64,000 nucleotides of DNA from Candidatus Magasanikbacteria bacterium RIFOXYC2_FULL_42_28 (lineage in GTDB: Bacteria; Patescibacteriota; Patescibacteriia; Magasanikbacterales; GWA2-37-8). The notes under the pieces were generated by a model. That model was given only the letters and a program-made list of their open reading frames with translations, did not search any database and was not told the DNA's origin. Location: the NCBI GenBank assembly GCA_001784435.1, contig MFQZ01000008.1:23347-87346 (forward strand), given 5' to 3'. A program made the position numbers and the translations under genes. Below, piece after piece: positions 11,748 to 63,999 of this stretch (position 1 is its first letter; every line of letters begins with the position of its first letter).

Positions 11748-11824
11748 TGTCATCCCGATGAAAATCGGAATCTCTGTCCAATAGTGATTGCCGTGCGAAG
11801 ATCCCGATTTTCATCGGGATGACA
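11748..11824. repeat. perfect 21-bp inverted repeat TGTCATCCCGATGAAAATCGG / CCGATTTTCATCGGGATGACA around a 35-nt loop, followed by a degenerate GTGCGATGACA tandem; the left arm recurs at 43761-43792
   Basis: seen directly. Confidence 0.6.
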
Positions 11825-13745: not shown

Positions 13746-13818
13746 GACCCTGTAGTTCAATGGATAGAACAATAGCCTTCTAAGCTGTGGATCTTGGTTC
13801 GATTCCAAGCGGGGTCAC
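13746..13818 (+). tRNA. tRNA-Arg (anticodon TCT)
   Basis: cloverleaf: acceptor GACCCTG/CGGGGTC, anticodon loop CTTCTAA, T-loop TTCGATT. Confidence 0.8.
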
Positions 13819-13822
13819 ACGC

Positions 13823-13965
13823 CAAATTTCAAAATCCAAATTTCCAATGTCAAATCAATATCAAAGCCAAAATGTCAAACCAAACCAGGTAATACAGTTG
13901 GTATTGATTTTTTGTAAATAACCTGTTATAATCGTTTGGAAATTGGATATTGGAAATTTGAAATT
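13823..13965. repeat. AT-rich palindromic GGAAATT-family element (arms TTTCAAAATCCAAATTTCCAATGTCAAAT ... TTGGAAATTGGATATTGGAAATTTGAAAT) between two tRNAs
   Basis: seen directly; same family as 33945, 34588, 38643, 39681, 41887 and 62236. Confidence 0.6.
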
Positions 13966-13990
13966 CCCCCGACTAAGTCGGGGGCTACAC

Positions 13991-14063
13991 GGTGCCTATA
14001 GTGTAATGGTTAGCACGAGAGATTGTGGATCTCTCAGAATGGGTTCAAATCCCATTAGGCACC
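13991..14063 (+). tRNA. tRNA-His (anticodon GTG) with the extra 5' G(-1)
   Basis: G-1 pairs with C73; acceptor GTGCCTA/TAGGCAC; anticodon loop TTGTGGA; T-loop TTCAAAT. Confidence 0.8.
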
Positions 14064-15734
14064 CCAAACGGTATCTAATATAACCGAGTTCGGTTGATTG
14101 GATATCATTGCAGGAATCTCGGCAATTTGTCGGGATTTTTGCGTTTTAGGGGCAATCTTGGATTTTGATTTGCCAGCTATGAATGGTGTGAATTCTACGG
14201 CCAAGTCGGTTATTATTCTCGGACCGGTAATTTCTTTGTATTTCTTGGTAAAAACCATATCCTCAGCTTGCATCAGTCCTCTTATGATCGGTGATGGTAT
14301 TACGGTTTGGATTTTTTTGTCGGCTACCTCAAATCTTTCCCAGTAAAGCCCAAGGAATAATCGTTTCATTTCGTCCGGAGATTTAGTATAGGCTTCGTAA
14401 GCGTTGCGGACAAACAAGAGCATATCTTGCAGTTCATCGATCCTCATATTGAGTTTTTTATCTTGGACGTACAGTTCGTCTTGCAACAGCCCAAGCTGTT
14501 CTTTAATTTTCACTTTTATTCTGGTGAAGTCGTCATCGGTAATAAGTCCGGCAAATAGTTTTTCCTCGGCGGTGTCCCGTTTCTTTTCAAACATCATCTT
14601 TTGAGTATTCAAGCCTCGTTTGTCTTTATTGATCACTTCTTTGCGACCGCTGTAAATCTTTTCAATCTTGGTCACCAGTCTGTCGGTAAAATTGGGAGTA
14701 AATTCTATATACTTGAACAAGTTAGCAACTTGCTGTTCTATATCCCAGACTTCCACATATTTGTCTTGGCATTTAATCTGATCGCCAGACCGGTTGCAGT
14801 GATAATATGATTTATTTTTCTTAGGATGATGTTCGGCGGTGTATCTTTGTCCGCAGTTGGCACAAAAGGTTAGACCTCGCAGAATGAAATTGAATTTTTG
14901 CCGTCGGCAGGCATATCTATTGTGTTCGGCCATAACCAACTGGACTCGTTCCCACAAATCTTTATCTATAAGTGGTTTATGTTTTCCGGTGTTAACTAAT
15001 CCTCGCCACCTCATCTCACCATAATAAAAAGGATTTTTTAGTATCTCGATCATCTTACTGTGAGCCAATCGTTTATCGGCGTGTGTTCTAAAACCTTTTT
15101 TGTATAAAGCATCGCGAACTTCAAAGACTGAATAATCGCCAGTCACATACATTTTGAATGCTTCTTGAATAAGCGGTGCCCGTTCCTCATCTACAATAAT
15201 AATTCTTTTTTTCTCATCGTCCGGCTCGCCAGCATTTAAATAGCCGACAGCCACACCGGTCGGCCACCAACCCTCCCAGAATTTTAGCTCAAGACTTTTC
15301 AAAGTTTTTCTCGAAGTGATTTGGGATTGGAGTTGGTTCACACCGGCAATAACCAAGTCCATAAAGTTTCCCTCGGGGCTATCGGTAATGCCAGGTTGGG
15401 AGACAGAGAACAGTTCAACATCATGCTTTTTCATGATCGCTTTGATCTGCATGTGATCAAGAGCGTTTCTGGCTAGTCGGTCAGTGTCTTGAATAAAAAC
15501 CGCCCTGATTGTTTTGTCGTCTTGGATTTTAAGTAACATGTCTTGTAGACCGGGACGATTCATATTAGTGGCTGATCGTCCGGGGTCTTCAAAAACACCG
15601 TCATCTATCAGTTTGAATTTGTTACTTTCCTCGATCGCTCGTTTGCAGAGCTTGAGCTGAGTCGCAAGCGAGTGGTGGCCGTCCTCGGCCTGTTCCTCGG
15701 TTGAGACTCGGCAGTAAATTAATGCATGTTCCAT
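14055..15734 (-). CDS. large serine recombinase (integrase) of an integrated element; its 3' end overlaps the 3' end of tRNA-His
   Basis: N-terminal resolvase catalytic domain (ALIYCRVSTEEQ ... DRLARN), recombinase domain and Zn-ribbon-like C-terminus (CxxC...C) typical of large serine recombinases. Confidence 0.85.
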   Translation of the reverse strand: MEHALIYCRVSTEEQAEDGHHSLATQLKLCKRAIEESNKFKLIDDGVFEDPGRSATNMNRPGLQDMLLKIQDDKTIRAVFIQDTDRLARNALDHMQIKAIMKKHDVELFSVSQPGITDSPEGNFMDLVIAGVNQLQSQITSRKTLKSLELKFWEGWWPTGVAVGYLNAGEPDDEKKRIIIVDEERAPLIQEAFKMYVTGDYSVFEVRDALYKKGFRTHADKRLAHSKMIEILKNPFYYGEMRWRGLVNTGKHKPLIDKDLWERVQLVMAEHNRYACRRQKFNFILRGLTFCANCGQRYTAEHHPKKNKSYYHCNRSGDQIKCQDKYVEVWDIEQQVANLFKYIEFTPNFTDRLVTKIEKIYSGRKEVINKDKRGLNTQKMMFEKKRDTAEEKLFAGLITDDDFTRIKVKIKEQLGLLQDELYVQDKKLNMRIDELQDMLLFVRNAYEAYTKSPDEMKRLFLGLYWERFEVADKKIQTVIPSPIIRGLMQAEDMVFTKKYKEITGPRIITDLAVEFTPFIAGKSKSKIAPKTQKSRQIAEIPAMISNQPNSVILDTVWGA

Positions 15735-33933: not shown

Positions 33934-33944
33934 AGTTTGATTAA

Positions 33945-34060
33945 TATCAAATTTCCAATGTCAAATGTCAAATCAATTTCAAAATCCAAATTTCAAAAAA
34001 CGATTTGACATTTAAATTTTGGATTTGATTGGAAATTGGAAATTTAGATTTTGACATTTC
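33945..34060. repeat. about 115-bp near-perfect AT-rich palindromic element of the GGAAATT family
   Basis: CAAATTTCCAATGTCAAATGTCAAATCAATTTCAAAATCCAAATTTC / GATTTGACATTTAAATTTTGGATTTGATTGGAAATTGGAAATTTAG; near-identical copy at 34588-34702. Confidence 0.7.
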
Positions 34061-34547: not shown

Positions 34548-34587
34548 ATTCTCACCCCCTTTCGCAATTTTAATATCATATTATTAA

Positions 34588-34702
34588 TTTCAAATTTCCA
34601 ATGTCAAATGTCAAATCAATGTCAAAATCCAAATTTCAAAACGCGATTTGACATTTAAATTTTGGATTTGATTGGAAATTGGAAATTTGGATTTTGACAT
34701 TG
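34588..34702. repeat. palindromic GGAAATT-family element, copy nearly identical to 33945-34060
   Basis: seen directly. Confidence 0.7.
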
Positions 34703-37224: not shown

Positions 37225-38667
37225 TTATAACGTTTGGCCGACTTTGGCCACCGCGTTATTTAACACCCCTTGACGCGCTTCATCTTCTTTAGCAATCCCA
37301 GCCGGTATGGTGAGCCAATCATCTACCATATCACCCACGGCTTTGGCCGCGACCGAATAATTACTGCCCCGATACCAATTTTCGGCCATTAAAACCTGTT
37401 CTACAAACGGCGCCACTTTTAAGTCAGCCCGTTGCTCCTCGATATACGCGCGCAGTGCCGTCGGCCGACCGCTGGCATCTAAATAATCTTTGGTCGCTTT
37501 GGAATGAGCCAAATAATCTATCAAACCCCAGGCCTCATTTTGATGTTTGGATTTGGCGGTAACGGCCTGTAAATAATAATTAGCCACGTTCACCGGTTGA
37601 TCCGGATTTAATTGAAATAATGGTAATACGCCAATATTCAACTGGGGAGCGCGCGCTTTAATGGTCGGATAATCATAACTATATCCTACCATAAATCCAA
37701 CTTTTCCGCTAACAAACGCGTCCATGGCATTACCCATATTTTTATTCCAGCCATAAGTGTCACGCGTAGGATTGGCAAAATCAGTATAAAAATCTAACAC
37801 GCTAAACGAGGCGCTGTTGGCATCCGCGCGTCTGTCCCGCCCACTGCCAAATTGTAAACGACCAAAATTATCACTAAACGGCACGCCACTTTGGCGGAAT
37901 AAAACAAACAAAATATCATCAACCGCCGCGACATTTTTACCAGCGCCAAAAGCCACGCCCGATTGAGTGATTTTGTCGTTTACCCGATCATATTTATTAA
38001 TTTTTTTCACCGCGGCCTGAAATTCATCCCAATTTTTAGGCGCTTCCGGCACACCCGCGCGGTCCAATAAATCTTTGTTGTAATAAACAGCCAAAGTATC
38101 CAAAGACAGTGGCAAGCCATAAACCTTGTCGCCTATTACCGCGTCCTCTTTGACTACTTTTACATATTCGCGCTCCAATTGAGTCGGCGTTACGAGTGGT
38201 ATGGTGCCAACCTGAACGGTAGTTTCGTCGCCCCCCAGGGCGGTTTTGGTCGTAAGCAAACGCGCATCCGAGACACTGGCCGGCATCGGCGCGATTTTAC
38301 TCAAATACCCGCGCACCATCCGATTGGAAATAGAAATAATATCCGGACCTTTATCTTCGGCAAGAGCTTCAATCAATCGCTGATAAAATTCCGAAGCGCG
38401 CAATTGGCGAACATTAACAGTTAAGTAACTACGGCCATCCAATTTATATTTTTCAATATTAGTTTTAAGCGCGTCCACATCATCGGCCACAGTCCAATAT
38501 TCTAAAGTTAATGGTTTAACCAATTGTTGTTGATCGGCAGAGATGCCTTTACAGCCGAGACCAGAAGTAATTAGAAACGCAAAAATACCGCTTATAATAA
38601 GTAGGGGTAAAATTTTCTTATGCGACTTTGGCATAAATTTTAATGTCAAATTTCCAATCAAATCCAA
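37225..38667 (-). CDS. extracellular solute-binding protein (ABC sugar-type SBP family) with a lipoprotein-like N-terminus
   Basis: N-terminal TM/lipobox (SGLGC), 480 aa, SBP-family-1-like profile; call not verified. Confidence 0.45.
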   Translation of the reverse strand: MDLIGNLTLKFMPKSHKKILPLLIISGIFAFLITSGLGCKGISADQQQLVKPLTLEYWTVADDVDALKTNIEKYKLDGRSYLTVNVRQLRASEFYQRLIEALAEDKGPDIISISNRMVRGYLSKIAPMPASVSDARLLTTKTALGGDETTVQVGTIPLVTPTQLEREYVKVVKEDAVIGDKVYGLPLSLDTLAVYYNKDLLDRAGVPEAPKNWDEFQAAVKKINKYDRVNDKITQSGVAFGAGKNVAAVDDILFVLFRQSGVPFSDNFGRLQFGSGRDRRADANSASFSVLDFYTDFANPTRDTYGWNKNMGNAMDAFVSGKVGFMVGYSYDYPTIKARAPQLNIGVLPLFQLNPDQPVNVANYYLQAVTAKSKHQNEAWGLIDYLAHSKATKDYLDASGRPTALRAYIEEQRADLKVAPFVEQVLMAENWYRGSNYSVAAKAVGDMVDDWLTIPAGIAKEDEARQGVLNNAVAKVGQTL

Positions 38668-38745
38668 ATGTCAAATATCAAATTTTGACATTGTCCACCA
38701 CAGGCCGATCCGCCTTTGGCGGAGAAATTTGGATTTTGAAATTAC
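38643..38745. repeat. GGAAATT-family palindromic element with an inner CCGCCTTTGGCGG hairpin
   Basis: seen directly. Confidence 0.6.
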
Positions 38746-39611: not shown

Positions 39612-39680
39612 AATTTTAAGTGATTATTTCATTGAAAATATTATAGCTTTTTTAACTTTATTTTACAAGAGAGAACTTTA

Positions 39681-39790
39681 ATTTCAAAATCCAAATTTCC
39701 AATTTCCAATCAAATCCAAAATCCTAATATCAAATTTGACATTTTGGCTTTGACATTGATTTGACATTGGAAATTGGAAATTTGACATTT
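39681..39790. repeat. GGAAATT-family palindromic element immediately upstream of the PilX-like gene
   Basis: seen directly. Confidence 0.6.
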
Positions 39791-41167
39791 TCACTCTATC
39801 TCTTCCCAACTCACCAAAAAATATTCCGACCCAACCGGAAAACCGGGGGGTGGATTTAGAGTTAAATTGGCATCGTAAGTGGCATAGGTATTTTTGTAAC
39901 CCGACACCACCGACCCGCCACCGGACACATAACTCCAAGTCCACAAATCATTGGAAATTATCGAACCATAAATAGTTAAACTTTCCCGTTTATTGCCCAT
40001 ATAAAAATATCGCTTGGCCGCGCCGGTTTGGGCGAGCATGGCCGCGTCCACTTCCAAGTAATTAGGCGCGATGTAGGGCAACAAAATATTTTTCTCAGCA
40101 ATCAATCCCAAAACATTAGTGCCGTCTTTCGCTAAATAAGTTAAATTATTGTTAATAACAATTGATTTGTCATCCGCCGTGCCGACCGTCGCCCGACCGT
40201 TGACAATCCCGTCCACCCATACCATATCTTCTACATATATATAGCCATTGGTCGGCATATCATATACCACTGCCGTGCCAAAAGTGGCGGCGTCAATGCA
40301 AAACCAGCCAAAGCGCGCGTGGCCATTGCCCCAATAATCTTGGCCGTAATAACAATCCGTGGTATTAACTTTGTAAATATTAATTTTGCCATCAGCGCGA
40401 AATTCCAGCCGATATCCTTGCTTACCGGACGATGTTAAATAAATACCATTAATTTCCGCCTCGCGTTTAATTTCGGCCAGTTTGGCGGTAACGCGCGAAA
40501 AATCTTGCGCCGGCACCGGAAATTCCCACAAACTCTCGTCGCCGTCGCCCCACACTCCGGGTTTTTCTTGATTACCGCAACCGTGATGTTGTTTACATAT
40601 ATAAGTAGGCACCGCCGAGGTAATGGGTGCGTTGCCAATGCCGTCAAAGCGCGCCCCGCCGTTAGCATGCAGTTTGCCGTTGGCGGTTTCGCTGTCGCCA
40701 ATCCAAATATCCACATTGGTAAGATACGCAAAATCCGTTAAAGCCGGAAACCCGACGCGCGCTTTTAAAGTGCGTTTGCTATCGGGCTGTAAATCCAACC
40801 AGCCGGTGGATTCAATCGTAACGACCGTGGAACCGCTTTGGGGTGGAATAATATTTAAAGAATAATGGCCGATGACATTGCCATCTTTATCTTCGTATTC
40901 GTGGATGTATGGCCCAACCGCGCCCGTGCCGTCTTGATAATCAGTTTTATCATGCGCCAAATGCCAGCGATAATAATTCACGCCCGCCTCGGCAATTTGA
41001 AAAGCCATTTCGCGATTATGTTTATGAACCGAAGCCCGATTTTCCAAAACCGCGTAACCGGTAACACCGACGACAATTAAACTAAAACTAATGGCGCCGA
41101 AGATGAGGGCAAAGAGTAATGCTGTTCCCCTTTTGTCAAATTTTAATTTTTTATAAATATTCAGCAT
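39791..41167 (-). CDS. PilX-like type IV pilus minor-pilin/assembly protein (large secreted protein)
   Basis: N-terminus KRGTALLFALIFGAISFSLIVVG resembles the PilX_N domain; 458 aa. Confidence 0.4.
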   Translation of the reverse strand: MLNIYKKLKFDKRGTALLFALIFGAISFSLIVVGVTGYAVLENRASVHKHNREMAFQIAEAGVNYYRWHLAHDKTDYQDGTGAVGPYIHEYEDKDGNVIGHYSLNIIPPQSGSTVVTIESTGWLDLQPDSKRTLKARVGFPALTDFAYLTNVDIWIGDSETANGKLHANGGARFDGIGNAPITSAVPTYICKQHHGCGNQEKPGVWGDGDESLWEFPVPAQDFSRVTAKLAEIKREAEINGIYLTSSGKQGYRLEFRADGKINIYKVNTTDCYYGQDYWGNGHARFGWFCIDAATFGTAVVYDMPTNGYIYVEDMVWVDGIVNGRATVGTADDKSIVINNNLTYLAKDGTNVLGLIAEKNILLPYIAPNYLEVDAAMLAQTGAAKRYFYMGNKRESLTIYGSIISNDLWTWSYVSGGGSVVSGYKNTYATYDANLTLNPPPGFPVGSEYFLVSWEEIE

Positions 41168-41289
41168 GCTAATAACTATTAATAATTCACTAAGTCCTAA
41201 TTCGCTAATTAACTAATCAAATACCAAAGTATTCAAGAATTGAAAATTTTATTAGCGAATTAGTTAATTAGTGAATTAGTTAATTTTCG

Positions 41290-41922
41290 TCAATTTGTCT
41301 TAAGATTTCTAATCGCCGCCTTGGTCTCAATCGCAAACGGCACCGGCGCCACATTAGGTTTTTCTTCTAATAATAAATTTATGCCAATCACCCGCACCAG
41401 CGCCGGATCAATCGGTGCTGACATCGGCGTGCCGGTCGCGCCGGTATAATCCTCATCATAATAATAAAACAGCGACGAGGTGGTATTGGCGACATCATGA
41501 ACAATATCAGTAACAGTTTCGCTCCCTAAATTATACGCGAGCGGTGTGCCGGTCGCTTTCACTATCCCCACTTTCAACGTCGTGCTCACCAAAAAATATC
41601 TAATCCTCTCCCGAAAAGAATCCGCGTCTAAATTGGAATAAAAAACCACCTCTTGGGCACCAGCCGACTCCAAACCATAACCGCCCGTGGCCGACTGCCC
41701 GGCGCGACGCAATTGATTAACAAAATCCTGCACCACCTTACGCCCTTCGTTTTGGGTGGACAACTGCTCCCACACCACATCGCGCCCCCGAAATCCCCAT
41801 ATAAAAATTTCCATCGTGCCCGCTGACACAATCAAAAAGATTCCAATCGCCACAAGGATTTCAATAATGGACATGCCGCGGGTATCAGTTTTGAATTTGG
41901 GATTTTGGATTTGATTTGACAT
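41290..41922 (-). CDS. prepilin-type N-terminal cleavage/methylation domain protein (pseudopilin)
   Basis: class III signal RG-MSIIEILVAIGIFLIV. Confidence 0.6.
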   Translation of the reverse strand: MSNQIQNPKFKTDTRGMSIIEILVAIGIFLIVSAGTMEIFIWGFRGRDVVWEQLSTQNEGRKVVQDFVNQLRRAGQSATGGYGLESAGAQEVVFYSNLDADSFRERIRYFLVSTTLKVGIVKATGTPLAYNLGSETVTDIVHDVANTTSSLFYYYDEDYTGATGTPMSAPIDPALVRVIGINLLLEEKPNVAPVPFAIETKAAIRNLKTN

Positions 41923-41945
41923 TGGAAATTTGGATTTTGAAATTA
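41887..41945. repeat. half-copy of a GGAAATT-family element, overlapping the 5' end of 41290-41922 and reaching the stop of 41943-43745
   Basis: GATTTGACATTGGAAATTTGGATTTTGAAATT. Confidence 0.5.
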
Positions 41946-43745: not shown

Positions 43746-43933
43746 AAATATTTAAACACTTGTCATCCCGATGAAAATCGGGATCTCTGTCCCACTTTGT
43801 ATATTATACCAGAAAAATCACCCGCTGTCATTCCGAACAAATGTGCAATAAAAAAACGTCTCGCGAATAATGCGAAACGTTTGAAATTTTCAATAAACCA
43901 ATTTACAATTTTCAATCAATTTTCATTTTTCAA

Positions 43934-44242
43934 TTAAACAATCCTAATGCCGGTCTTTTTAATCTCATTAACCATCGGATTGTTTTTATCGTTAAAATCA
44001 GCGACGGTGAAACCGTGGGGTTCAATTCGCCCATCCACATTACTACCGGCCATCCACAGGGCGGAACTATTTTCAAACCGACGTAACTTATCAGAAAATA
44101 TCGCCACATCAATATCACTAAATTTATTAGCCAAACCTTTGGCGGTGGAACCAAACCAAAAAATACTGGCAAACGGAAAATTGCTTTTTTTTAATTCGGC
44201 CGCGTAAGAACAAACAATTTTTTTTACTTTATCTTTTGACAT
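43934..44242 (-). CDS. nucleotidyltransferase (MNT) component of a HEPN/MNT toxin-antitoxin pair
   Basis: GSTAKGLANKFSDIDVAIF (GS...SDxD polymerase-beta-type NTase motif). Confidence 0.65.
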   Translation of the reverse strand: MSKDKVKKIVCSYAAELKKSNFPFASIFWFGSTAKGLANKFSDIDVAIFSDKLRRFENSSALWMAGSNVDGRIEPHGFTVADFNDKNNPMVNEIKKTGIRIV

Positions 44243-47397: not shown

Positions 47398-47569
47398 TTA
47401 TGCACAGCGCCAGTTTTACGAAAATGTGGTATAATATGTGTGAAATACTAAACCCTAAATCCTAAACTCTAAAGAAGTCCAAATATTTAAATTCAAAAAA
47501 AACAAAAATTTTGACATTTTTATTTGGAATTTGTTTAGAACTTAGTGTTTAGAATTTAGAATTTTTATT

Positions 47570-49915
47570 GTGTCTCGTCCTCGTCGCATGATCCACTACC
47601 AAAAACGCCCGGCCGCGCCGCGTTTTAATCTTAATCCCGAATTAAACAACGGCATTATTGCGGTTTTGCTTTTTATTTTGGCTGGCATTGCCACTTTGAG
47701 TTTTTTCCAAATGGCCGGCGTGCTCGGACAATTTGTGGATTCATTTTTGGCATTGCTGTTTGGCCAAGTACGCTACTGCGTCCCCTTGGTTTTAATCACC
47801 GCTTCCATCTTACTCGTCAAAGACATTGAATATAACTATCGCCACACCCACTCGGTCGGCGCGATTTTATTTTTCTTAAGTTTCAACGGCCTCGTGCATT
47901 TACAATATCCGCTTGCCGATATGGCCTCAACGGCGCAACAAGGTTACGGTGGCGGTATGATTGGCTTTGCCCTCGCCTGGGTAATGGCCTCGTATGTTGG
48001 CTATTGGGGCGGGATGTTAATTTTAATCGGACTTTTGATTGTCTCACTCATATTTTTGTTCAACACCACGCTCGCGCAAATGGTGGAAATTCACAAAAAA
48101 TTATTTTTAACTTTGGGCTGGCTCGGACGCGAGATTGTTGCGTTTTTTGGCAGTTTTAAAAACCCGTCTTCGCCTTGGGCTACGCCGGGTAAACCCGTAA
48201 AATTTGCTATCAAGGGTGATTATGAAAATCAAACTCAACCCGAAGATAATATTAACGAAACCGATGGCGAAGAAGAGCGCGTCTTTAAACAAAAATCGAT
48301 TGCTCAAACTGACGACACCGACGAAACAGAAGAAGAACCAGCCGAAGCCGAACCGGAAGAGGAAAAAGTGGTGGGCGTGCCTCAAGCCGTTATTCGCGAT
48401 TTACCAAATTTAGATTTATTATTCACCTCCAAATCCAAACCATCGGCCGGTGATATCAAAGGCAATGCCGAGACCATTAAAAGCACTTTGAAAAATTTTG
48501 GCATTGAAGTAGAAATGGGTGAGGTGCGCGTTGGTCCGACGGTAACGCAATATTCTTTCAAACCAGCGGCCGGCATTAAATTAACCCGCATCACTACTTT
48601 ATCAAATGATTTAGCGCTCGCTTTGGCCGCCCACCCAATTCGTATTGAAGCGCCAATTCCAGGCCAAAGTTTAGTCGGCGTGGAAGTTCCCAACCAAAAA
48701 GTGGCGATGGTAACACTGCGCGAATTATTAGAATCTGAAGAATTTACCAAACGCCCGCACAACATGATGATCGCGTTAGGCAAAGATGTCGCCGGTAAAG
48801 TTTGGTGGACGGACTTATTAAAAATGCCCCACCTACTCGTCGCCGGCGCCACTGGTTCAGGCAAAACCGTTTGTATCAATGCGATTATCACCAGTCTACT
48901 TTATCAAAATACCGCCGAAACTTTGCGCTTTATAATGGTAGACCCTAAACGGGTGGAGTTGACGCTCTACGACGGCATCCCCCATTTATTAACGCCGGCA
49001 ATAACCACTCCGGCCAAATGTGTGAACGCGCTAAAATGGACTATCAACGAAATGGAACGCCGTTTTGATGTTTTAGCCAAAGCCGGCAAACGCGATATTG
49101 CTTCTTTTAATAAATCCTCGTCCGAACCACTTCCATATATAGTATTTGTCATTGACGAATTAGCGGACTTAATGTCCCAAGCCAGCGCCGAAGTGGAAGC
49201 CGGAATAATTCGCATTGCCCAAATGGCGCGCGCGGTCGGTATTCATTTAATTGTCGCCACCCAACGCCCGAGTGTGGAAGTGATTACCGGTTTAATGAAA
49301 GCCAATATCCCCGGGCGCATCGCCTTTTCGGTGGCTTCAATTATTGATTCGCGCACAATTTTAGATTGCCCGGGCGCGGAAAAATTATTAGGCCGCGGCG
49401 ATATGTTGCTCCTGACCGCTGACATGTCTAAACCAAAACGCGTACAAGGCGCGTTTATTTCCGAAGAAGAAATTGATCATGTAGTGGAACATTTGAAAGG
49501 CGACGAACCACCCACTTACGACGACGCGATTGTGGCCAAAGGCGATAACAGTGGCGGCACCTTAAATATGTTTACCGGTGGCACCGATGACCAAGACGCG
49601 TTATTTGATGATGCCAAAAGATGTGTAATTGAAAGTGGCAAAGCATCCGCTTCATTATTACAACGTCGCTTAAAAGTGGGCTACGCCCGCGCCGCGAGAT
49701 TATTAGATGAATTAGAAAATGCCGGCATCGTCGGGCCCGCTGACGGCGCCAAACCGCGCGAGGTGTTTACCGAACATATTGGCAATGGACACCATATGCC
49801 CGCGCCCGAAGCCGAAATTCCGGCGGACGAGCAGACGATGGATTTGGGTGGGGTGGTGTTGGATGATAATAAACCGAAAGAATCAGAAGCCGAAGAAGAA
49901 CCACCAACACAATAA
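47570..49915 (+). CDS. ftsK: DNA translocase FtsK/SpoIIIE
   Basis: N-terminal TM segments, linker, Walker A VAGATGSGKT, Walker B, C-terminal gamma wHTH. Confidence 0.9.
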   Translation: MSRPRRMIHYQKRPAAPRFNLNPELNNGIIAVLLFILAGIATLSFFQMAGVLGQFVDSFLALLFGQVRYCVPLVLITASILLVKDIEYNYRHTHSVGAILFFLSFNGLVHLQYPLADMASTAQQGYGGGMIGFALAWVMASYVGYWGGMLILIGLLIVSLIFLFNTTLAQMVEIHKKLFLTLGWLGREIVAFFGSFKNPSSPWATPGKPVKFAIKGDYENQTQPEDNINETDGEEERVFKQKSIAQTDDTDETEEEPAEAEPEEEKVVGVPQAVIRDLPNLDLLFTSKSKPSAGDIKGNAETIKSTLKNFGIEVEMGEVRVGPTVTQYSFKPAAGIKLTRITTLSNDLALALAAHPIRIEAPIPGQSLVGVEVPNQKVAMVTLRELLESEEFTKRPHNMMIALGKDVAGKVWWTDLLKMPHLLVAGATGSGKTVCINAIITSLLYQNTAETLRFIMVDPKRVELTLYDGIPHLLTPAITTPAKCVNALKWTINEMERRFDVLAKAGKRDIASFNKSSSEPLPYIVFVIDELADLMSQASAEVEAGIIRIAQMARAVGIHLIVATQRPSVEVITGLMKANIPGRIAFSVASIIDSRTILDCPGAEKLLGRGDMLLLTADMSKPKRVQGAFISEEEIDHVVEHLKGDEPPTYDDAIVAKGDNSGGTLNMFTGGTDDQDALFDDAKRCVIESGKASASLLQRRLKVGYARAARLLDELENAGIVGPADGAKPREVFTEHIGNGHHMPAPEAEIPADEQTMDLGGVVLDDNKPKESEAEEEPPTQ

Positions 49916-61268: not shown

Positions 61269-63644
61269 TTACCCCATCCGACTCAACCTTGCGAAAACAA
61301 AAAATATCACACTAAACCCAACCCCCATCACAACCGGCGCGAAGAGCGACAACCAATTGGTTTTCCCCGGCCGAAACCGACGCAAAAATAATGAATTAAT
61401 AACAACCGATACCGAAGACAACGCCATGGCCAATCCGGCCAATTCCGGTTTTAACACCAAACCAATGCCGGCAAAAACTCGCGCGGCAATTGGAATGCCG
61501 ATGACATTATAGAACAACGCAAAAAACATATTTTGTTTTATTTTGCCCATGGTCTCGCGGCTTAATTGAATCGCGGTCAGCACATCGCGCAAATCGTTTT
61601 TGATAATTACGATGCCACCAGTTTCCATCGCCACGTCTGTGCCACTACCCATTGCAATTCCCAGATCCGCCTGCGCCAACGCCGGCGCGTCGTTTATGCC
61701 GTCCCCCACCATGGCGACTTTCACACCCGCGCTTTGTAATTTTTTCACCTCGTTCGCTTTTTCTTCCGGCAACACCTCGGCCAATACATTTTTAATTCCC
61801 GCTTGACGCGCGATTGCTTCGGCCGTCCGACGATTATCACCGGTAATCATATATACTTCTAGCCCACGCTTCTGCAACATTTTTACCGCTTCCACTGTTG
61901 TCTCTTTAATTGTGTCCGCGACGGCAATCAACCCAACCAAATCATTTTCAATAACCAAAAACATTACGGTCTTCCCCTCTTTTTCCAACTGCTCTACGAC
62001 ATAATTATTAGCGGGCGCAATCACCAAATTATTATCAGCCAATAATTTCCGATTTCCCAATAAAATTTTCTGCTCATTAATTTTACCAACTACACCATGC
62101 CCGGGAACTGCGCTAAATTCCTGTACCTCCAAAAGCACTAAATTTTTCTCCTTGGCCTTATTCACAATCGCATCAGCCAAAGGATGTTCTGACTTGGATT
62201 CTATGGAAGCGGCAATTTGAAGAATTTGATCATTGGGATTTGAAAATTGATTGGAAATTGGAAATTGGAAATTGGAAATTGCGATGATATCCGTCAATTC
62301 CGGCTCTCCCTTAGTCAAAGTCCCGGTTTTATCAAAAACAATCACTTTAATTTTACATGCCGCTTCCAATGGCTCACCCCCTTTGATAAGTACGCCGTGT
62401 TCTGCACCTTTACCCGTGCCAACCATAATCGCGGTCGGCGTGGCGAGGCCCAAAGCGCACGGACAAGCAATAACGATAACGGAGGTAAACGCCATTAACG
62501 CGAACGCGAGCGACGCGCCCAAGAAAAAATACCATACCAAACCGGTCAAAATCGCAATGCCAATTACCGCCGGCACAAAGTAAGCGGAAATTTTATCCGC
62601 GAACGCCGCAATGGGCGCTTTGCTCCCCTGCGCGTCTTCCACCACGCGAATAATTTGCGCGAGCATAGTTTCGCCTCCGACTTTCGTCGCGACAAATTCA
62701 AAACTGCCGTGCTTATTTATGGTGGAACCGATTACCACATCGCCCACATTTTTTTCCACCGGAATACTTTCACCCGTAATCATACTTTCGTCCACAGCTG
62801 ACTGGCCTTTGGCAATTTTTCCATCCACCGGAATTTTTTCACCCGGACGCACGACAATGACATCGCCCGCGACCACCTGTTCAATCGGTACATCCGCCGT
62901 TACACCATTTTTAATTACGCGCGCAGTTTTGGCTTGCAAACCCATTAATTTTTTAATCGCGTCCGAGGTCTGGCCTTTGGTTTTTGCTTCCAACCATTTA
63001 CCTAACACCACGAAAGTAATTAGAAACGCCGCGGTCTCAAAATATAATTCCGGAATTTTCGCGCCGTTTAAGCCGATAAAACTATTGGTGATCCGAACAT
63101 AATTAAGATATTGTACTAAACTGTAAAAGAACGCGGTGCTCGTGCCAATCGCAATCAAACTATCCATGTTGAAAGTTTTCATTTTCAAACTACTCCACAT
63201 TCCTTTGTAAAATCCGGTGCCAATAATAAACTGCACCGGAATGGTCAAAATCAAAGAAATTATTCCGACATAAGGCAATAGTGCCGCTCGGAGTGGAATA
63301 AATGAAAAGAAATCAAACAACATGAAATACAACATCGGCAAAGACAACCCAAAACTCCACCAGAATTTTTTGCCATATCCGGTTAACACAGTCGCGCGCT
63401 CGCGTCTATCCGCCTCCGGATCAGAGTTATCATTCAAACGCGCTTTGTAACCGGCCTTTTCCACCGCCGAAATTAATTGCGCGACGGTCGTGAGCGAAGT
63501 ATCAAACACCACCCGCGCTTTTTCCGCGGCAAAATTTACATTGGCGGTTTGAACGCCCGTCACCTCTTTTAATCCCCGCTCAATCAAAGTGGCGCAAGAC
63601 GCGCAGTGCATGCCTGACAAATTTAATTGTTTATTATCGATCAT
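61269..63644 (-). CDS. copA: copper-translocating P1B-type ATPase with an in-frame repeat-derived insertion in the N-domain
   Basis: HMA domain [11 protein letters not shown] motif, [17 protein letters not shown]; start taken at MIDNKQ. Confidence 0.9.
62236..62282. repeat. GGAAATT-family repeat segment ((TTGGAAA)x4) embedded in-frame in copA, encoding [14 protein letters not shown]
   Basis: seen directly. Confidence 0.6.
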
Positions 63645-63654
63645 ATTTTTATAA

Positions 63655-63999
63655 TTATTGAGAAATACCACTACCACAACCATCAAGCGAACAGGAAATA
63701 TTATCAGCATTTTCTGTTGTGTTAGTATTGGCATTAACCGCTGTATTTTTATCTTCTACCACAATAAATTTCCCACGATACATCCCCATGGAACAAGAAA
63801 ATGGAATCGTGCCCACTTCGGTCGGTGTAAAATTAATAATATTTTCACCGGCGTTAAGCCCTTGATTAATTCCAAATTTGCGCATCACAATCGACGCGGC
63901 GCAAGAATATTGCGAAGTGGAATTGATTATCCATTTAACCGGCCGGCCTTTCACCACGGTAAAAGTATCAGGCGTGTAACCATTATTATTTTGCGTCAT
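63655..63999 (-). CDS. cupredoxin-like copper-binding domain protein, probably N-terminally truncated at the window edge
   Basis: [12 protein letters not shown] resembles a type-1 Cu site region; adjacent to copA. Confidence 0.35.

Follow-up and report, generated by a model that had tools for sequence, protein, structure and literature searches.

How does a piece of repeat DNA come to be translated as part of a copper transporter? The question is raised by copA, the last gene of a 64,000-nt stretch of the genome of Candidatus Magasanikbacteria bacterium RIFOXYC2_FULL_42_28 (contig MFQZ01000008.1, positions 23,347 to 87,346), which we refer to as the window and whose own numbering we use throughout. 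Between its DKTGTLT and SEHP motifs, copA carries a perfect tandem of heptamers. We found that the tandem is the head of a longer segment that belongs to a dispersed palindromic repeat family, is read in frame, has close relatives in unrelated genes and genomes, lies in a loop of the protein, and recurs as a kind of insertion at the same loop of other CopA proteins. The explanation that we consider probable is that the segment is a full arm of this heptamer-periodic family, a selfish repeat similar to the Rickettsia palindromic elements (RPEs) that is tolerated in a permissive loop.

A repeat arm read in frame within copA

The features of copA needed here are as follows:

61269..63644, minus strand: copA, P1B-type Cu+ ATPase (open reading frame, motifs, Pfam domains of homologues)
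62313..62333, minus strand: DKTGTLT phosphorylation motif, upstream of the insert
62223..62280, minus strand: 58-nt repeat-element arm, in frame (collinear with ten intergenic arms; profile match; 56 of 58 positions shared with the LeuRS insert of L083)
62253..62280, minus strand: perfect tandem (AATTTCC)x4, which is GGAAATT x4 on the plus strand (TRF, pattern search)
62223..62252, minus strand: arm tail AATCAATTTTCAAATCCCAATGATCAAATT, encoding 10 residues (28/30 identical to the L083 tail, E = 1e-6)
62181..62192, minus strand: SEHP nucleotide-binding motif, downstream of the insert

The 821-codon open reading frame (ORF) extends over 61269..63734, upstream to 63734, with translation likely starting at 63644 (MIDNKQ). 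The motifs CASC (the N-terminal CxxC), TGES, CPC, DKTGTLT, SEHP, TGD and GDGIND, which mark a P1B-type ATPase, all lie in this single frame, and the protein matches the structures of A. fulgidus CopA (2B8E) with E = 7e-69. The Pfam domains HMA, E1-E2_ATPase and Hydrolase are present in its homologues, including P0001, which is identical to the window protein, and the closest homologues come, by their source labels, from Patescibacteria (Magasanikbacteria, Kuenenbacteria and similar).

On the plus strand, positions 62250-62281 form (ATTGGAA)x4.6, a perfect head-to-tail heptamer simple sequence repeat (SSR) of period 7 with 100% matches (TRF). Read along the coding strand, the arm consists of (AATTTCC)4 followed by AATCAATTTTCAAATCCCAATGATCAAATT, 58 nt in total, and together with the flanking GC (62223-62282) it encodes 20 residues between DKTGTLT and SEHP. 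A preliminary description of the locus, made from the DNA letters, had proposed that a palindromic-repeat segment of four units is inserted in frame between these two motifs. The ORF, TRF and the motif coordinates bear out the in-frame repeat DNA and its four units. The repeat-derived stretch is nevertheless 58 nt long (62223-62280) rather than about 33 nt, and the gain is not a clean insertion: compared with relatives, about 30 native nt were replaced by about 60 nt, a net change of +30 nt. The segment is likewise palindromic only by family membership, as the copy in copA is a single arm that is not itself a palindrome. We regard it as a single arm because no inverted partner lies nearby; the only candidate near the arm was a weak 27-nt, 74% match 183 nt away. 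This stretch (62044-62070, downstream in the copA mRNA and 74% complementary to the tract) encodes the conserved LLGNRKLL, and its GGA and CGG codons (GGC and CGT in the related locus L004) raise the complementarity, which is probably due to chance.

In all six frames, repeats of AATTTCC are free of stop codons. By our reading of the sequence, two of the three sense frames and one of the three antisense frames stay open through the whole arm, and the frame of copA is among the open ones. Across 3.5-5.7 kb that span the site, the window is 100% identical to three other contigs, which come from two assembly projects (JGI 3300002209 and ENA ERZ27254852). This agreement between contigs of two projects makes an assembly error at the tract, a concern voiced in the preliminary description, unlikely.

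The intergenic repeat family

The window holds six intergenic elements of the family, the first five of which are listed without a strand:

39680..39789: palindromic member with two 55-nt arms (inverted repeat, RNA fold, nhmmer on both arms)
34586..34702: palindromic member (inverted repeat, arm alignment, nhmmer)
33943..34058: palindromic member (inverted repeat, arm alignment, nhmmer)
13825..13965: palindromic member between tRNA-Arg and tRNA-His (inverted repeat, arm alignment, nhmmer)
38636..38745: member with a degenerate right arm (nhmmer)
41885..41944, minus strand: solitary intergenic arm (arm alignment, nhmmer)

The hairpin pairs span 110-140 nt, and the RNA hairpin of 39680..39789 has a folding energy of -41.3 kcal/mol (z = -5.8). 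Each arm is built of about eight heptamers of the AATTTCC, AATTTCA, AAATCCA and AATGTCA types and contains a conserved AATCAA landmark. The general plan is four AATNTCN units, the AATCAA landmark, and two to three further units ending in TCAAAT, and the copA segment follows it. When aligned with ten intergenic arms, the segment was collinear over its full 58 nt, with 70% mean column identity and the landmarks in place throughout, and an nhmmer profile built from those ten arms only recovered copA at 62224-62280 (hmm positions 1-56, E = 1.8e-7). The assignment of the copA segment to the intergenic family, made in the preliminary description, is thus supported by both the column alignment and a profile from which copA was left out. 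By nhmmer, there are about 13 arms in the 64 kb. The two-unit pattern GGAAATTGGAAATT, allowing at most one mismatch, occurs at 13 sites in the window versus 0.23 expected; none of 100 shuffles reached 13, and we therefore exclude chance. The minus strand of 39670-39800 reads MSNFQFPMSNQ in frame 0, in agreement with the spurious ORF that had been described over the 39681-39790 copy.

The element at 13825-13965 fills the spacer between tRNA-Arg(TCT) and tRNA-His(GTG) (region 13746-14066), beginning 7 nt past the 3′ end of tRNA-Arg. In other elements the outermost heptamers, TTGACAT or TTGAAAT, provide -35-like hexamers (33943-33971, 34580-34607 and 39660-39687, minus strand), each with a spacing of 16-17 nt to a -10-like box that coincides with the element's outer edge or lies slightly beyond it, and facing downstream minus-strand genes. 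The best case, TTGACA-16-AATAAT, matches at 11 of 12 positions, and the palindromic elements may donate promoter halves.

Copies in other genes and genomes

Another genome (L083) has, in frame within its LeuRS gene, an insert that matches the copA module at 56 of 58 positions. A scan of metagenome contigs with a degenerate pattern revealed near-identical modules, also in frame, in four more gene families: a FemAB-family gene (L146, with one mismatch in the tail), genes for HypF-like carbamoyltransferases (L148-150 and also L107), MetRS genes (L145, L147 and L151) and a UvrC gene (L152). Orthologous HypF-like inserts have 2 to 4 units. No genes shared between the module-bearing loci and the window were found by blastn or tblastx.

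A scan for exact (AATTTCC)3 in GTDB genomes, each species being represented by one, gave at least 120 sites, where about one would be expected as estimated from base composition. Among the matches listed with titles, 45 of 80 are labelled as Patescibacteria of many classes, and the others are spread over other phyla; viral contigs gave 11 exact matches. Among the matches listed, 73 of 120 sites (61%) lie in ORFs that extend without a stop for 50 codons or more in both directions. We checked ten of these ORFs, and in each the tract is flanked on either side by Pfam domains of a genuine housekeeping enzyme: MnmA, LeuRS (at two sites), Fmt, Pol I, a GT1 glycosyltransferase, LigA, IleRS, CarA and MetRS. 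Two sites fall inside 23S rRNA genes. The number of units in 115 tallied tracts was 3 in 50, 4 in 61, 5 in 3 and 6 in 1, and this peak at 4 and collapse at 5 argue against free slippage. Solitary arms were found in coding sense (27), coding antisense (2) and non-coding (15) positions, while paired arms were non-coding in 8 of 9 cases. A search for (ISNFQFP)6 in a database of 5.8 billion proteins, which is blind to inserts of 10-20 amino acids, gave only 18 short, probably spurious ORFs, some of them cyanobacterial.

Several side observations concern these copies. The same enzyme carries the tract at the same position in several genomes: LeuRS in L023, L060, L109 and L115, with a second LeuRS site in L077, L090 and L108; MnmA in L008 and L070; Pol I in L011 and L072; and Fmt in L033 and L040. 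One shared LeuRS position follows YLAYIMRG. These could be inherited insertions that were kept perfect, or repeated hits on permissive sites. In the 23S rRNA genes of other Patescibacteria (L106:503-3828 and L116:3639-7496), palindromic elements headed by (AATTTCC)n accompany lengths about 400 and 930 nt over the Rfam model, and they have the look of expansion segments derived from repeats. AT-rich (AATTTCC)n hairpins are present as well in metagenome-assembled genomes (MAGs) labelled as lying outside the candidate phyla radiation (CPR) (L039, L117, L014 and L101, for example Gemmatimonadota and Caulobacteraceae), including a locus of 62% G+C (L117), and some tract-bearing MAGs of low G+C labelled "Gammaproteobacteria" or "Bdellovibrionales" may be mislabelled. 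Across about 1.0 Mb of fetched loci and the window, perfect tandems of at least three copies comprised 41 period-7 arrays, with many different units, and 1, 4, 7 and 1 arrays at periods 5, 6, 8 and 9; the period-7 bias persists more than 150 nt from any AATTTCC tract.

Length and predicted structure of the loop

The spacer from DKTGTLT to SEHP measures 40 amino acids in the window CopA and 30 in 112 of 120 homologue clusters, with 29 in one cluster and longer spacers in seven, two of which are the window's own protein. Alignment with A. fulgidus CopA (2B8E) places an 11-residue insertion between the first strand and the first helix of the N-domain. The claim that the loop is about 10 residues longer than in typical CopA proteins therefore stands. 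The closest full-length relatives (P0003, P0004 and P0005; 84-87% identical overall) have the ordinary 30-residue loop, so that the ortholog alignment marks the expansion as lineage-specific.

In an AlphaFold2 model of P0001 (62 sequences; mean pLDDT 76.5), a strand (462-468) and a helix (483-495), with pLDDT of about 90 in these flanks, enclose a low-confidence coil (469-482, pLDDT of about 65). As modelled, the insert would form an unstructured surface loop of 19-20 residues at the start of the nucleotide-binding domain. In a diverse set of 131 CopA N-domains, the spacer was as short as 25 and as long as 83 residues, and the loop thus tolerates length change across CopA proteins generally. 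Three distant CopA representatives with long loops at the same site (P0183, P0175 and P0189) show repeat-like peptides there, for example FSNDQIL, which matches the module tail, and SEIRNPS...FQIPNSK.

Recurrence at the CopA loop

The relatives with long loops carry heptamer repeats at this place in their DNA as well, rather than the same loop written in unrelated codons, an outcome that the preliminary description had named as one that would speak against a repeat origin. The loop DNA contains AAATCCC and AATTTCC units followed by the shared AATGATCAAATT tail in L001/P0024; AAATCCC, AATGACC and AATGTCC units in L005/P0013; three AAAATCC units in L006/P0070; GTGAAAA and GTTAAAA units in L007/P0064; and ATTGGAA units in the opposite orientation, read as GNWKMEIG, in L003/P0110. 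The nearest N-domain relatives of P0024, P0110, P0070 and P0064 have a plain 30-residue loop and no insert, which indicates at least 4-5 independent gains at the CopA loop. In P0024, a second in-frame heptamer tract, GTGAAATTTCCAATTTCCAATTCCCAATTTCCAGG, read as VKFPISNSQFPG, is located in the A-domain (L001:10727-10761), about 200 residues upstream of the loop insert.

In the cleanest pair of filled and empty sites (L003 and L131), 30 nt stand in place of 24 native nt, and the two edges show microhomology of ATT and ATTGG. No target-site duplication was seen in this pair, nor by eye at the junctions of copA, L083, L146, L148 and L150.

A recombined N-domain

One further feature of the gene bears on the history of the arm:

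61874..62285, minus strand: divergent (recombinant) copA N-domain segment (identity drop versus P0003, P0004 and P0005; upstream edge adjoins the tract)

Outside residues ~445-585, the window CopA is 95-100% identical in amino acids to P0003, P0004 and P0005; inside them, identity falls to ~36-57%. The nearest N-domains are instead those of P0013 (66-69%) and P0024 (55-61%). At the nucleotide level, a perfect 41-nt run shared with L004 includes some of the DKTGT-coding motif and reaches the tract's edge; identity is then 0.4-0.7 for ~140 codons and afterwards returns to 0.93-0.97. This drop indicates that the N-domain was exchanged by recombination, with the tract at the upstream junction. We do not take the coincidence to mean that the tract caused the exchange, because no stretch of the gene is more conserved than this junction, which would by itself favour crossover. 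P0003, P0004 and P0005 differ among themselves in which end is identical, and this suggests frequent exchange within this copA clade. For the donor of the N-domain, a word-indexed search gave only short fragments of at most 54% identity, and an exhaustive search of cluster representatives gave a best match of 56%; neither identified a donor. While the module is ~97% identical to copies in other genomes, the N-domain around it has no relative above 69%. This difference speaks for a module far younger than the sequence that hosts it, or for one that is being homogenised.

Other repeats of the window

Repeats of other types occur at 41169-41285, 47443-47564, 11748-11824 and 43899-43935. The window's other repeats include a palindrome of period 8 (CTAATTAA/AATTAGTT), a palindrome that consists of CTAAACC/TTTAGAA heptamers and lies upstream of the gene at 47570, an inverted repeat of 26 nt with 96% identity, and CAATTTT heptamers.

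Origin of the copA arm

If the arm is a selfish repeat, its history may be outlined as follows. It would have overwritten ~30 nt of the native strand-to-helix loop, and the net length change would have kept the frame. Spread would not depend on a transposase and, in the mode that we favour, would proceed by microhomology-primed copying from other copies, through template switching or gene conversion. Slippage could keep the four head units identical, and selection would remove insertions that are not stop-free, that change the net length by other than a multiple of three, or that fall outside permissive loops. The copA copy may have come with the recombinational replacement of the N-domain or soon after it. 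We propose that it persists because the arm is free of stops, the length change is a multiple of three, and the loop tolerates length change. For CopA, the arm would most likely be neutral, "selfish" DNA, functionally comparable to the RPEs by analogy.

The four identical head units raise the alternative of a local microsatellite, in which the heptamers expanded within copA by slippage from the native loop and resemble the intergenic arms only as any AT-rich heptamer repeat would. Heptamer SSRs are indeed over-represented in many bacteria (PMC4692102), period-7 arrays prevail in the sampled loci (41 versus 1, 4 and 7 at periods 5, 6 and 8), and the native loop DNA of relatives offers seeds such as GAAGAAATT and ATTGGAT. 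The tail argues strongly against this possibility: its 30 nt are not tandem but are shared with the intergenic arms, they recur at 28 of 30 positions in an unrelated LeuRS (E = 1e-6), and the same tail is found in four more gene families. Moreover, copy number peaks at 4 and collapses at 5 rather than decaying smoothly, and the native sequence has no AATTTCC seed on the sense strand. A microsatellite origin thus appears quite improbable. Still less probable, in our judgement, is an adaptive or regulatory role, whereby the loop tunes the ATPase or the 7-nt tract serves as a frameshifting phase-variation switch for copA. The unit is not a multiple of three and the tract lies in the middle of the ORF, so that a change of one unit shifts the frame; the loop is placed at the junction of the P- and N-domains, and gains have occurred there repeatedly. 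However, all four contigs have the same unit number, with no variant among them, and 4.6 units are short for a contingency locus. The module also occurs in LeuRS, MetRS, UvrC, Pol I and other enzymes that a cell could not survive switching on and off. At the CopA loop, heptamers of different flavours and of either orientation yield unrelated peptides, and the loop is modelled as disordered.

The repeats might alternatively be maintained at the level of DNA, as an uptake or recombination sequence of competent Patescibacteria comparable to the DNA uptake sequence (DUS) of Neisseria or the uptake signal sequence (USS) of Haemophilus, with the coding copies as a by-product. The tract is strongly over-represented across many phyla, is found in inverted pairs where it lies between genes and singly where it lies within them, and adjoins the upstream edge of the recombinant copA segment. 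On the other hand, ~13 arms in 64 kb are sparse next to the roughly one per kb of DUS and USS, the arm is 58 nt long with tandem heptamers rather than one short core, and the breakpoint coincides with the highly conserved DKTGT-coding stretch, which would favour crossover by itself. We consider this rather improbable. A fuller version, in which the arm is a selected signal shared across the radiation of naturally competent, DNA-scavenging Patescibacteria and its genic copies act as portable homology that seeds mosaics such as the copA N-domain, seems to us unlikely, if slightly less so. An assembly artefact or chimera at the low-complexity repeat may be suspected as all sources are metagenome assemblies and the mosaic boundary falls at the tract. 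It would have to be reconciled with the complete agreement of contigs from two projects across the region, with a frame and CopA motifs that are all preserved through the junction, and with in-frame preservation in dozens of independent genomes, and it is scarcely credible.

Several points weigh against our preferred explanation, a selfish repeat tolerated in a permissive loop. The share of tracts in ORFs (61%) is below the ~85-90% coding density of bacterial genomes, indicating that the repeat is tolerated in genes rather than enriched in them, and the loci were sampled for carrying the tract, so that their frequencies are not genome-wide rates. No direct sign of mobility was found, and neither a transposase nor a cognate insertion sequence (IS) or RAYT turned up, though the window proteins were not put through a transposase screen and no search aimed at an IS or RAYT was made; the term "mobile" thus reflects distribution only. 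The exact insertion boundaries in copA are uncertain because no close relative provides the empty site of this N-domain (the best N-domain relative is 66-69% identical in the word-indexed database and 56% among cluster representatives). The perfect tandem at the head of the arm is of a kind that slippage alone could lengthen. The window and P0013 both have an insert in the N-domain, and each of these two N-domains is most closely related to the other, so that the inserts may share one event. Finally, that the loop is translated and the pump active is predicted from sequence.

Relation to known repeats

The elements share with RPEs a dispersed, hairpin-forming structure without an encoded transposase and a presence in intergenic DNA, in RNA genes and, in frame, in housekeeping genes (PMC10969869 for the RPEs). 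In both systems the added peptide sits at fold-compatible positions, as described for RPEs (PMC10969869) and as suggested here by the loop model and the Pfam-flanked enzymes. Like RPEs, the family comprises multi-copy palindromic elements that are in frame and stop-free in unrelated housekeeping genes at permissive sites. Here, however, the hosts are Patescibacteria and some other phyla rather than Rickettsia, the arms are made of 7-nt units headed by perfect (AATTTCC)3-4, and the coding copies are usually a single 58-nt arm instead of a whole palindrome of ~100-150 bp. Because of these differences in host, heptamer build and single-arm coding copies, we do not file the element as an RPE; the likeness is one of behavior. 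The view that a repeat of this kind is unusual as coding sequence, taken in the preliminary description, holds only in a relative sense, as in-frame copies are frequent in housekeeping genes of Patescibacteria and Rickettsia has palindromic elements that are likewise in frame (PMC10969869).

Heptamer SSRs such as the cyanobacterial short tandemly repeated repetitive (STRR) sequences, TAACTGA of Beggiatoaceae, Cyanobacteria and Bacteroidetes, and GGGNATC of Xanthomonas and Nostoc resemble the head of the arm in their period-7 tandems, genome-wide over-representation, punctate spread across phyla and a spreading mechanism that is unknown (PMC4679880, PMC4692102). They are mainly intergenic and are under-represented in ORFs or peripheral to them (PMC4692102; PMC4679880), whereas the tract described here is part of a longer arm, forms palindromes and often lies inside conserved domains of essential enzymes. 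PARCEL elements are also coding repeats with dyad symmetry that have apparently spread horizontally among unrelated microbes (PMC2996958), but they consist of 25-residue units in long tandem arrays, in ORFs of unknown function and often in membrane proteins, while the copA copy is a single arm in the loop of a conserved enzyme. Transposable elements of the miniature inverted-repeat type (MITEs) and REP, ERIC, BOX and Correia elements are similarly short, non-autonomous, multi-copy and hairpin-forming, and MITEs occasionally form in-frame fusions with host ORFs (PMC10969869). In contrast to MITEs, the inspected junctions of the present family lack target-site duplications, and native sequence was replaced and not just interrupted. 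DUS and USS are over-represented motifs, paired and inverted where they lie between genes and single, in frame, where they lie inside them, a distribution shared by the present elements, which are nonetheless longer, periodic, less dense and spread across phyla; the likeness is one of distribution alone. TIGR-Tas arrays, which came up in the literature, have a different architecture. The literature searched, whose coverage was incomplete so that a description elsewhere is possible, contained no account of the element or its peptide.

Implications for CopA and for the Patescibacteria

For CopA itself little would change in practice: we are almost certain that the pump is intact, and the loop would be decoration. 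The preliminary description had called the transporter essential, whereas CopA is a resistance pump and normally not essential.

The wider interest lies in the family, which is apparently a widespread and undescribed RPE-like element of Patescibacteria. In-frame selfish palindromic repeats have so far been nearly confined to Rickettsia, and they now appear, with a different architecture, in Patescibacteria, which is surprising as the genomes of these organisms are among the smallest and most streamlined known. Three architectural marks characterize the family: its arms are built of heptamers, genes contain single arms, and complete hairpins occur in intergenic DNA and in 23S rRNA. The essential enzymes reached include LeuRS, MetRS, IleRS, Pol I, LigA, UvrC, MnmA and Fmt. 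If this reading is correct, it poses the question of how a 58-nt module enters genes across phyla with neither a transposase nor target duplication. It would also account for a class of strange low-complexity insertions, in CPR proteins and rRNAs alike, that can mislead annotation, alignment and structure prediction, and the repeats would provide a marker for recent insertions and for gene flow between CPR lineages.

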